From Nostoc sp. (GTDB taxonomy: Bacteria > Cyanobacteriota > Cyanobacteriia > Cyanobacteriales > Nostocaceae), in contig NZ_JBALDP010000021.1 in the NCBI RefSeq assembly GCF_036917355.1, forward strand, positions 30,542-94,541: a stretch of DNA of 64,000 nt. The letters run 5' to 3'. Under the pieces are notes generated by a model, which saw only the letters and a program-made list of their open reading frames with translations, made no database searches and was not told the DNA's origin. This document shows positions 35,917 to 38,348 of the stretch, in pieces; position 1 is the stretch's first letter; the number at the start of each line of letters is the position of its first letter. A program made the translations under genes and the position numbers.

Positions 35917-37005
35917 TCAATTTAACGGCTTATATATATCTTCAGAACAGGGATTGAGATAAGGACGCTGCAAATCAATTAGATGTCGCGCAAAGTGTTG
36001 GTCAATAACCCTCATCCGTTCCTCCATCGCATTTTTACCTTTTTGCCAAGCTTCCAACAAAGCATTTGCGACGATTTGGCAACGGTTCATCCCAAAACTT
36101 TCTTGTGCCGCAAATTTTTGGGTTGGTTCTTCGGCTAAACCTAACCCTGGAGCTAAAAATTTGGTAAACAAAGGAATTTCGGGCTGGAAATGGGATTGAT
36201 TTTCGATATAAACAGTCTGAAGGATTGCGCGGATTGCTGGATAGTCGGGGAGTTCAAAGTAGAGTAGCCCCGAATCATAGCGTCCGTATGCAGAAGGGTT
36301 GTGGAGAACCTGAAAACTAAAGGGAATCGAGGCTGCATTTAGTTGCAGTGTCAAGCTTTCCATGAGAGCGATCGCACCCGATGCCGTAAAGTTAAAATAG
36401 ATTCGCCCTGCTCCTAAATCAGCATCTGGGTTGCTTTGCCGTTCCTGTCCAACATTGCTAACTGCTAAGTAACAGCCATTTTGCAGTCGATTTTTGGGCA
36501 TCCAGATTGCTATCATGTCACCCACTTTGGTAGATTTCTTACTGGATTCTAGATGGCAATCTGGCTCAACATAAAGTGTTAAACCGCCTTTAGTCACAGC
36601 CATAGTCCCATCAGGTTCTTTCCGCAACACCTGCCATCGAGGGTCAAAATAACCTATGCCGTGATTACTGGCGTGCAGTTGCTCGTAAAAGTTCCAGTCA
36701 ATCTCCAAAATAGAATTATCTGCTAAATTATGCTTTTGCGGGCAATTAGTATTATCAGTATTGACTGCCAAAGTACTTTGCAGGGAGCCATTGTAATAGA
36801 TTCCATAGAGAAAATTTCGCAGCAGGAGAGTGAGATACTTCTGTTGTAAATCTACGGAATTTTGTTGAAATCTATCGGCTATTTTAGTCGGCAGAGCAAA
36901 GGGTTGATAATTGGGATGGTAAATACAAAAATTAGACTCAATCTGGATATTCTGAGCAATATCAAATAGAGAATTTAGCGATTGATTGATAGAGGAATTT
37001 AGCAT
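35917..37005 (-). CDS. HopA1-family protein (LanY-like phosphothreonine lyase fold)
   Basis: FLYGIYYNGSL, GYFDPRWQV, RIYFNF, YGRYDSGLLYF, PLFTKFLAPGLGLAEEP, SFGMNRCQIVA. Confidence 0.8.
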   Translation of the reverse strand: MLNSSINQSLNSLFDIAQNIQIESNFCIYHPNYQPFALPTKIADRFQQNSVDLQQKYLTLLLRNFLYGIYYNGSLQSTLAVNTDNTNCPQKHNLADNSILEIDWNFYEQLHASNHGIGYFDPRWQVLRKEPDGTMAVTKGGLTLYVEPDCHLESSKKSTKVGDMIAIWMPKNRLQNGCYLAVSNVGQERQSNPDADLGAGRIYFNFTASGAIALMESLTLQLNAASIPFSFQVLHNPSAYGRYDSGLLYFELPDYPAIRAILQTVYIENQSHFQPEIPLFTKFLAPGLGLAEEPTQKFAAQESFGMNRCQIVANALLEAWQKGKNAMEERMRVIDQHFARHLIDLQRPYLNPCSEDIYKPLN

Positions 37006-37106
37006 TAATCCATTCAGAAATCAAACTGTAATAAAATAGAATTCAGGAGTCAAAATACAGAATTCAGAATTGTGTGTTCTGATTCAAATTGTTCTACTCT
37101 CTACTG

Positions 37107-38348
37107 CTAACAACCACGCAGCCGAGTTTTCTCGTAATAAATCCGAAGTAACTGCTGCTCTTTCACAGGCTGAGGAAATTTATGAATCTTTGCCACAGGA
37201 TTTAGGATTTCTGACTCTGACATCCCGAAAATGGTCAATACAGCTTGCTCTGGCATTACAAGTAAACTTTTAGCTACTTGAAGCATACAGAGTTCAACAT
37301 TATTAAAGTGTTTCCGGCACGTAATCATCTCCTGAATTTGATGAATTAGTGCCAGTCCCGCAAACTGGAGAACGCGCGAAATAAAGTCACTGCGGTATTC
37401 CAAAATCATCGGGAAAGCATTTATATAAGCCCTAATTAAGGCAATAATTGAAGGTTGTAAAATCTCTAACGGTGTTAACGCCAAATGTAAAGATTCTTCT
37501 AACTCAAGGGTGGGGTCTACTACCAGACTCTTAAGCCAAATTCCTAAATAGCTTGCCAGTAAAGTTCCTAAATCAAAGGCTGGGTCTCCCCAAGAACAAG
37601 CTTCCCAGTCAATTAGTCGTATAAGACAATTGTCTAATTGCTCCCATCTGGAATGAACCAAAATGTTGTTCAATTTCAGGTCGTTATGAGTTAAACAGCA
37701 AGGATTCCAGCTATATGCCAAATCTGCGATCGCAGATTCCAAACTCTCGTACTGTTGATAAAGAACATAGAATTTCAGTGCATCTGTGGGAACAGTCCCA
37801 AAAATCTCCGGCCCAATCGACCCTACCCCTTGCGCTGGATTGTAAAACCCGTAGCGAAACTCTCCTTGGGGAGCAGTTGCCATAAAATCCCGATATTCTC
37901 GGCGGTTGTAGGTGGCACGATGCAGTCCCGCCAAAGTTGTGCCGATGGCAGAAGCAATTTCTTGTGGAAAAATCTCATTGTTGTGGTATAATGTCGCAAG
38001 CTCTAGATATTCATTCAAGTAGCTACGGACAAGAATCGAATTTTCTTCGTCAAAATGCACTACCAATGGCGCGATCGCTGAAGTATTACCTAGAACTGGA
38101 AACTGTTGTAGCAACTGGTGAAATAGCCACTCCTGAAACAATTCATGAGGCGCGCCGTCATTGTTGTTAACGTTACGTTCTTGTTTAATGAGCAGTTGGC
38201 AATTATCTACTAAAGTCACTAGTAAATTGAAATTGTTCTGACTACTTCCTGGCAACTCAGATTTGTCTGATGGGCCATCTTCTGAGCTACACAGACCCGC
38301 CTCTTGCAGATACTGGATAACGTTATGAGAAGACAGTGATAATACCAT
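37107..38348 (-). CDS. Aminoglycoside-phosphotransferase-family kinase (LanK-like)
   Basis: LLIKQE (ATP lysine), THNDLKLNNIL (HxD..N), LIDWE, WGDPAFDLG. Confidence 0.85.
   Translation of the reverse strand: MVLSLSSHNVIQYLQEAGLCSSEDGPSDKSELPGSSQNNFNLLVTLVDNCQLLIKQERNVNNNDGAPHELFQEWLFHQLLQQFPVLGNTSAIAPLVVHFDEENSILVRSYLNEYLELATLYHNNEIFPQEIASAIGTTLAGLHRATYNRREYRDFMATAPQGEFRYGFYNPAQGVGSIGPEIFGTVPTDALKFYVLYQQYESLESAIADLAYSWNPCCLTHNDLKLNNILVHSRWEQLDNCLIRLIDWEACSWGDPAFDLGTLLASYLGIWLKSLVVDPTLELEESLHLALTPLEILQPSIIALIRAYINAFPMILEYRSDFISRVLQFAGLALIHQIQEMITCRKHFNNVELCMLQVAKSLLVMPEQAVLTIFGMSESEILNPVAKIHKFPQPVKEQQLLRIYYEKTRLRGC

Follow-up and report, generated by a model that had tools for sequence, protein, structure and literature searches.

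The class V lanthipeptide split dehydratase LxmK/LxmY, like CaoK/CaoY and RosK/RosY and also like TvaC/TvaD and ThoC/ThoD of the thioamitides, is encoded by a gene for an APH-fold kinase that adjoins a gene for a HopA1-fold protein. In LxmKY, CaoKY and RosKY, the Y subunit is required for the solubility of K and for substrate binding (PMC12141560, PMC9486802, PMC12291118), and substrate binding needs RosK and RosY to form a complex (PMC12291118). The catalytic residues of LxmK are K66, D221, Q226 and D241 (PMC12291118). The mechanism proposed for CaoY assigns removal of the alpha-proton to Lys219; Arg187 would activate the carbonyl, and the phosphate would be stabilised by Arg229 together with His57. 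The K219A replacement abolishes elimination (PMC9486802). The same arrangement of an APH-fold kinase gene and a HopA1-fold gene is found in the window analysed here, a stretch of 64,000 nt from Nostoc sp. (assembly GCF_036917355.1, contig NZ_JBALDP010000021.1, positions 30,542 to 94,541 of the forward strand), where the pair consists of the following genes.

37107..38348, minus strand: LxmK-like APH-fold kinase, window type, 413 aa (Pfam APH, E 7.8e-14; NCBIfam LxmK, E 7e-20)
35917..37005, minus strand: LanY-like HopA1-family protein, window type, 362 aa, without the catalytic Lys (Pfam HopA1, E 3.6e-61)

The term window type is used for the orthologues of this pair, and cluster type for the paralogous pairs that lie within clusters resembling those of RiPPs (peptides made on the ribosome and modified after translation). 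Comparison of both types leads us to favour, with about even credence, a domesticated and lyase-dead LanKY-like complex that would bind, and in this strain probably phosphorylate, a target encoded elsewhere.

A sequence-only reading of the window had described an APH kinase with intact motifs and a HopA1 protein, encoded by two co-oriented genes 101 nt apart and flanked by xth and a TMEM14 gene, and had claimed homology to the class V kinase/lyase dehydratases. The open reading frame (ORF) map and the Pfam matches agree with this description; the kinase gene lies upstream, both genes are on the minus strand, and K55, E73, H221, D223, K225, N228, D247 and E249 can all be read in the kinase sequence. 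The homology was borne out by sequence, profile and fold searches, all of which led to LxmK/LxmY, the closest characterised relatives of the pair. For the kinase, the best NCBIfam match was LxmK, with 71.3 bits, which falls far short of the equivalog cut-off of 315. The HopA1 protein matched Pfam HopA1 (PF17914) over the whole model, and its sole significant match among PDB sequences was chain B ('Lyase') of 9DK1-3 (9dk1_B, E 9e-6), the lexapeptide dehydratase LxmK-LxmY (PMC12141560). Profiles of 28 orthologues and of 28 paralogues matched the LxmY chain with E values of 3e-5 and 7e-10, respectively. When an AlphaFold2 model of the HopA1 protein, of medium confidence (pLDDT 62, pTM 0.53), was submitted to Foldseek, the top three matches were LxmY (E 5e-9, probability 1.0, TM 0.40-0.45), and the HopA1 structures of Pseudomonas syringae (4rsw and 4rsx) appeared as weak fold matches (E ~0.15). 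The only link between the type III effector HopA1 of P. syringae and the studied protein is the shared C-terminal domain.

Clade-wide loss of the catalytic lysine

Compared with LxmKY and CaoKY, the studied pair keeps the kinase catalytic residues and the equivalents of CaoY R187, R229 and Y236, but has Gln in place of the catalytic Lys (CaoY K219, LxmY K221). Three independent alignments, all in the same register, placed LxmY K221 opposite Lys240 of the cluster type and Gln232 of the studied protein. The sample comprised 81 GTDB genomes of Nostocaceae (heterocyst-forming cyanobacteria); about 100 loci were annotated against a reference set, and the counts given here cover 43 window-type and 39 cluster-type loci.

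36310..36312, minus strand: codon CAG of Gln232, at the catalytic Lys position (three independent alignments)
CaoY Lys219, Gln232 here: cluster type, K in 39/39; window type, Q in 36, E in 4, H in 2, G in 1 and K in 0/43
CaoY Arg187, Arg201 here: cluster type, R in 39/39; window type, R in 37/43
CaoY Tyr236, Tyr249 here: cluster type, Y in 39/39; window type, Y in 28/43
CaoY Arg229, Arg242 here: cluster type, R in 39/39; window type, R in 42/43

In 120 further cluster representatives, 68-94% identical to the studied protein, position 232 was occupied by Q (105), E (12), H (2) or Y (1) and never by K, which brings the window-type total for this position to 43 + 120 = 163 sequences. The CAG codon of Gln232 is one base away from a Lys codon, yet Lys was present in 0/163 of these sequences, which suggests that it was selected against in the window type and not merely lost. 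A scan of the alignment columns showed the catalytic Lys to be the only functionally notable residue that was invariant in the cluster type and absent from every window-type sequence. Three arginines (R63, R128 and R173) were newly invariant in the window type, and its other gains, Asp121, Glu147 and Asp344, were already common in the cluster type. In no column of the window type had a residue fit for acid/base catalysis (Lys, His, Tyr or Cys) become newly invariant.

With the general-base lysine gone, the window-type pair has most likely ceased to form dehydro-amino acids. The sequence-only reading had taken the pair for a stand-alone Ser/Thr dehydratase or an irreversible phospho-eraser, and this claim is contradicted by Gln232, by the absence of Lys from all 163 window-type sequences against its presence in 39/39 of the cluster type, and by the lyase-dead CaoY K219A mutant. 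A modified form of it, in which the pair would still be an active dehydratase that uses another base and works in trans on distant precursors (for example, those of the cluster on contig C51 described below) or on phosphoproteins, is judged unlikely. It would account for the retention of the fold, of the pairing and of most of the active-site surroundings, as R201, R242, D244 and Y249 are all present in the studied protein and His30 is invariant in both types, and it would fit the recurrence of Lys-less HopA1 proteins in the wider family, some of them inside clusters. However, the position of the missing Lys drifts between Q, E, H, G and Y across the clade, no candidate base has become invariant, and Arg201 and Tyr249 are relaxed in the window type, since they are kept in only 37/43 and 28/43 sequences. 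Moreover, the window-type pair is present without a cluster-type pair in about 23/81 genomes, the kinase appears to be dead in some lineages, and CaoY is inactive when the equivalent Lys is replaced by Ala (PMC9486802).

Loss of Lys as a feature unique to the window-type clade was rejected, as about 27% of the family-wide HopA1 representatives are also without Lys at the catalytic column; Lys-less HopA1 proteins are thus a recurring theme. One Gln-type HopA1 gene (L094) was found inside a full export cluster. In several family representatives (P0184, P0188, P0216, P0218, P0226, P0233, P0242 and others), of 720-830 aa, the HopA1 domain is fused to another domain, either following or preceding it, and these proteins are probably kinase or LanC-type fusions.

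The kinase active site and the proposed activity of the complex

Residues K55, D223, N228 and D247 of the studied kinase, among which are the catalytic Asp, the Mg-binding Asp and the ATP-binding Lys of an APH/ePK-like fold, correspond to K66, D221, Q226 and D241 of LxmK. The catalytic residues were invariant in 39/39 cluster-type kinases, and all four were kept in 36/43 window-type kinases, including that of the studied strain; K225 was replaced in 14/43. In the kinase of a sister species of the same genus (L004:10140-11381), 90% identical to the studied one, the D247N replacement was found, which removes the Mg-binding Asp and gives LINWD instead of LIDWE, and this protein is likely a pseudokinase. 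One window-type lineage combined K55Q, D223H and D247N, and D247N was also found in another, separate lineage. D223E was present in a pair of window-type genomes, and D247Q, together with E249G, in one reduced genome.

Because the kinase site is intact in this strain, binding and phosphorylation are the likeliest activity of the complex. According to the favoured explanation, the pair would be a vertically inherited paralogue of a cyanobacterial split peptide dehydratase of the LanK/LanY type, which would have left its biosynthetic cluster before the radiation of the heterocyst-forming cyanobacteria, would have lost the lysine that serves the lyase as general base and would have been kept for another job. 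The K-Y heterodimer and its peptide-binding cleft would have been retained, and the kinase would use ATP to phosphorylate a peptide or protein whose gene lies elsewhere. Its obligatory partner would be the HopA1 subunit, with a structural and substrate-holding part to play; this subunit keeps Arg201 and Arg242, which contact the phosphate, and its Gln232 would be unable to abstract the alpha-proton. Since Y is needed for the solubility and substrate binding of K in the described systems, a K-Y complex could still depend on a Y subunit that is catalytically dead.

Two described groups of proteins bear on such a role. LanX, RosX and TvaE, in which the kinase fold no longer carries catalytic residues, have kept leader binding and have been reused as aminovinyl-cysteine (AviCys) cyclases (PMC12291118), and they provide a precedent for the loss of catalysis followed by a new role. 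In the LanX type, the degenerate fold is that of the kinase and the gene lies inside the cluster, whereas in the studied pair it is the lyase fold that is degenerate, outside any cluster. The phosphothreonine lyases OspF, SpvC and HopAI1 catalyse the same beta-elimination with Lys as general base, and their Lys-to-Ala mutants bind the phospho-substrate without eliminating phosphate (PMC9486802). They are secreted effectors that have no detectable sequence homology to the studied HopA1 protein, so that the likeness is a mechanistic analogy only.

The replacements found among the window-type kinases also bear on a fully non-catalytic pair, made of a pseudokinase and a pseudolyase, which would bind a peptide, such as one with a double-glycine leader, and serve as a sensor, a chaperone, a sequestering or immunity factor, or a regulator of export or signalling. 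This alternative is regarded as rather unlikely, yet as a serious contender. At least five window-type lineages, that of the same-genus D247N kinase among them, have lost essential kinase residues independently of one another and despite purifying selection, and the variability of K225 points in the same direction, as does the precedent of LanX/RosX, in which a kinase fold devoid of catalytic residues binds the leader peptide (PMC12291118). Nevertheless, the conservation of K55, D223, N228 and D247 in 36/43 window-type kinases exceeds what would be expected from a purely structural role.

Some of these observations weigh against a complex that binds and phosphorylates its target. The loss of catalytic residues in the sister species means that even phosphotransfer may be dispensable, which would favour a purely non-catalytic role. 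As to the lyase, another base may have replaced the Lys, so that its loss is no proof of the loss of elimination, and the frequency of Lys-less proteins in the wider family counts on the same side. Finally, the HopA1 model, given its medium confidence (pLDDT 62), served for fold assignment only and not for active-site geometry.

Inheritance of the pair and absence of cluster genes

At least one HopA1 gene was found in 81/81 Nostocaceae genomes. The window-type pair was near-universal, being present in at least 77/81 genomes, the smallest ones (3.8-4.3 Mb) included, and in about 23/81 the window type was the sole HopA1 gene. Elsewhere in the order, the HopA1 gene was patchy (18/115 genomes, with this genome and five other Nostocaceae left out). 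The kinase gene adjoined the HopA1 gene in every one of the ~100 loci and, therefore, the pairing is not due to chance; orthologues are consistently paired, as the sequence-only reading required.

When a tree of 104 HopA1 proteins was built by maximum likelihood, the 43 window-type sequences formed one clade (SH-aLRT 99), nested among Lys-bearing sequences, and 0 of the 22 HopA1 sequences from other families fell inside it. Pairwise dN/dS values of the window type were 0.06-0.19 for HopA1 and 0.10-0.21 for the kinase, equal to or lower than those of the cluster type (0.13-0.27 and 0.10-0.21, respectively). Both window-type genes are under strong purifying selection, and a decaying pseudogene was rejected on these values (0.06-0.21). 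The same values rule out the decaying remnant that forms one half of a further alternative, the other half being a small-molecule kinase, similar to choline, aminoglycoside or methylthioribose kinases, beside an unrelated HopA1-like neighbour. Despite weak matches of the kinase to small-molecule kinases in Pfam and NCBIfam, this alternative is hardly credible, as LxmK surpassed all other family matches by far and the kinase and HopA1 genes were adjacent in every locus. The 10 orthologue clusters examined, with dozens of Nostoc and Anabaena strains, bore only the names 'hypothetical' or 'T3SS effector HopA1 family protein', and no paper on the orphan window-type pair was found in the literature searched.

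When the whole assembly was searched with the Pfam HopA1 model, a second copy was found on contig C51, in the following context.

Contig C51, ~111.9-121.6 kb (L003:5897-15630): complete RiPP-like cluster that contains the paralogous pair
L003:5897-6211, 6819-7040 and 10110-10301: three double-glycine-leader peptides of this cluster

The paralogous kinase and HopA1 protein are 51% and 57% identical, respectively, to those of the studied pair, and this HopA1 protein bears the Lys (Lys240). The cluster also encodes a PpiC-type 'peptide maturation' protein, HlyD and a C39-peptidase ABC exporter with a cyclic nucleotide (cNMP)-binding domain. A Cys-rich protein of 145 aa without family match, also encoded there, is found again next to the kinase in at least eight further loci of the cluster type. 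Clusters of the C51 type match the cyanobacterial 'Family 1A' HopA1/phosphotransferase clusters of Eyles et al. 2021 (PMC8153245), which belong to group I/II of the bacteriocin clusters described by Wang et al. 2011 (PMC3140520). As the paralogues are 51% and 57% identical to the studied proteins and the window-type clade is nested among cluster sequences, the 'Family 1A' clusters are the direct evolutionary source of the window-type pair. They contain double-glycine peptides, PpiC/SurA, HlyD and C39-ABC, with Lys in 39/39, whereas in the window type all these genes are missing and Lys is always absent.

Genes for a cyclase, a decarboxylase, a C39 protease, HlyD or PpiC were absent from the studied locus and from 42 orthologous loci, and in the 43 window-type loci no C39-ABC, HlyD, PpiC, LanD or LanX gene was found within ~9 kb of the pair. 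PpiC, HlyD and C39-ABC were encoded near nearly all cluster-type pairs, often with double-glycine peptides; the double-glycine-leader pattern was detected in 15/39 cluster-type loci against 1/43 window-type loci, in which the match was poor. Comparison of 34 orthologous gaps by blastn and tblastx revealed no ORF conserved among relatives in the region between the TMEM14 gene and the kinase gene (38349-39286) and, therefore, no precursor gene lies there. A hidden small precursor ORF was rejected, as conservation in the gap was of a non-coding kind only, and a recurring 'MINKN' start was likewise rejected as a precursor because the sequence after it was unrelated between relatives.

These comparisons extend to the whole orthologous group what the sequence-only reading had stated for the window, namely, that no cyclase, decarboxylase, protease or transporter stands beside the pair and that no convincing small precursor ORF is present in the gap. 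The orphan status that it proposed holds family-wide, although it had overlooked that another contig of this genome carries a complete RiPP-like cluster with the paralogous pair. Compared with class V pathways, the studied pair is without a nearby precursor, LanD, LanX, protease or transporter; its genes are core and vertically inherited, whereas class V pairs belong to a mobile cluster.

Tandem kinase-HopA1 pairs in other cyanobacterial families raise a further alternative. At L086:8202-13241, two pairs lie side by side, with one of the HopA1 proteins bearing Lys, and at L101:8083-12415 one HopA1 protein has Lys and the other Tyr, the second kinase being past the contig end. Such tandems imply that Lys-less pairs are able to work beside active ones, and the studied pair could accordingly be an accessory module of a cluster-type pathway, with a cyclase-like or gate-keeping role similar to that of LanX, encoded apart from the cluster. 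We consider this quite improbable, given that the window-type pair is found in many genomes without a cluster-type pair, is never linked to export genes and possesses a conserved upstream element of its own, which the cluster-type loci lack.

Upstream region, neighbouring genes and significance

The element upstream of the kinase gene has the following components.

38445..38575, minus strand: conserved non-coding block of ~130 nt, with TAAAG-type direct repeats, a palindrome and GATATTAGTAGAT (blastn conservation)
38507-38519: palindrome TGCCA-TTT-TGGCA, inside the conserved block
38474-38486: GATATTAGTAGAT, inside the conserved block

The block was conserved at the nucleotide level, without a consistent reading frame, even in the most distant window-type loci. 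Its palindrome is specific to the clade, as 42/42 window-type loci have it 100-190 nt upstream of the kinase and no cluster-type kinase is preceded by it. An Rfam search of the gap gave only sub-threshold chance matches. In a scan for sigma-70 promoters and terminators, matches were no more numerous than in shuffled sequence and the block could not be fitted to -35/-10 elements; the palindrome scored as a weak terminator-like hairpin.

Two further copies of the palindrome were found in the genome, against ~0.4 expected by a rough estimate, with unrelated neighbours. Both consist of TTGCCATTTTGGCA followed by a T-run, at G000:C84:50323-50338 (L104) and G000:C108:95970-95985 (L106), and one of them lies downstream of rpe, near a hetP-like ORF of 98 aa. 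These copies may share a regulator with the element upstream of the kinase, or may be small terminators.

Other features were observed inside the gap. The sequence TCCGGT is present at 38986-38991 (minus strand), with a conserved GATGATAAATAAAAATAA ~20 nt downstream, in a block kept in nine closer relatives. It is one base off TCCGGA, the heterocyst-associated DIF1 motif, and the block may be the promoter of a long leader or of a small RNA. A tandem heptamer, (GGAGGCA)x3, lies at 38738-38760 (minus strand), and a HIP1 site, GCGATCGC, at ~39097-39104.

The genes and the gap that surround the pair are the following.

35022-35804, plus strand: xth, flanking gene on the HopA1 side
38349..39286, minus strand: intergenic gap of 938 nt, without conserved ORF
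39287-39607, minus strand: TMEM14-family gene, neighbour on the kinase side (Pfam)
39692-41068, plus strand: DUF815 AAA ATPase, neighbour on the kinase side (Pfam)
41290-42627, plus strand: transmembrane/coiled-coil protein, neighbour on the kinase side

At least one of the TMEM14, DUF815 and coiled-coil genes adjoined the pair in ~33/43 window-type loci, and the xth flank was variable. This lasting linkage may reflect a functional tie or merely slow rearrangement.

A speculative and rather unlikely proposal is a 'write-and-hold' core module, which heterocyst-forming cyanobacteria would have domesticated from a RiPP dehydratase, and in which the kinase would phosphorylate a peptide or protein signal and the Lys-less HopA1 protein would read or protect the phospho-residue instead of eliminating it, under the control of its own palindromic operator and with a possible tie to the peptide signalling of multicellular development. 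If true, this would make a new class of phospho-signalling, based on a pseudoenzyme and with its origin in natural-product machinery.

Genome mining for class V-like RiPP clusters uses pairs of HopA1 and APH genes as a signature. One large group of such pairs, which nearly all heterocystous cyanobacteria carry, does not form part of a biosynthetic cluster and probably does not encode a dehydratase and, therefore, its loci are not to be counted as orphan RiPP clusters. The window-type pair is a natural example of a pair of tailoring enzymes made into a conserved core pair, with the lyase base removed and the remainder constrained. It points to a role in the cell, be it binding or a phosphorylation that no elimination follows, in developmentally complex bacteria whose model strains are genetically tractable.

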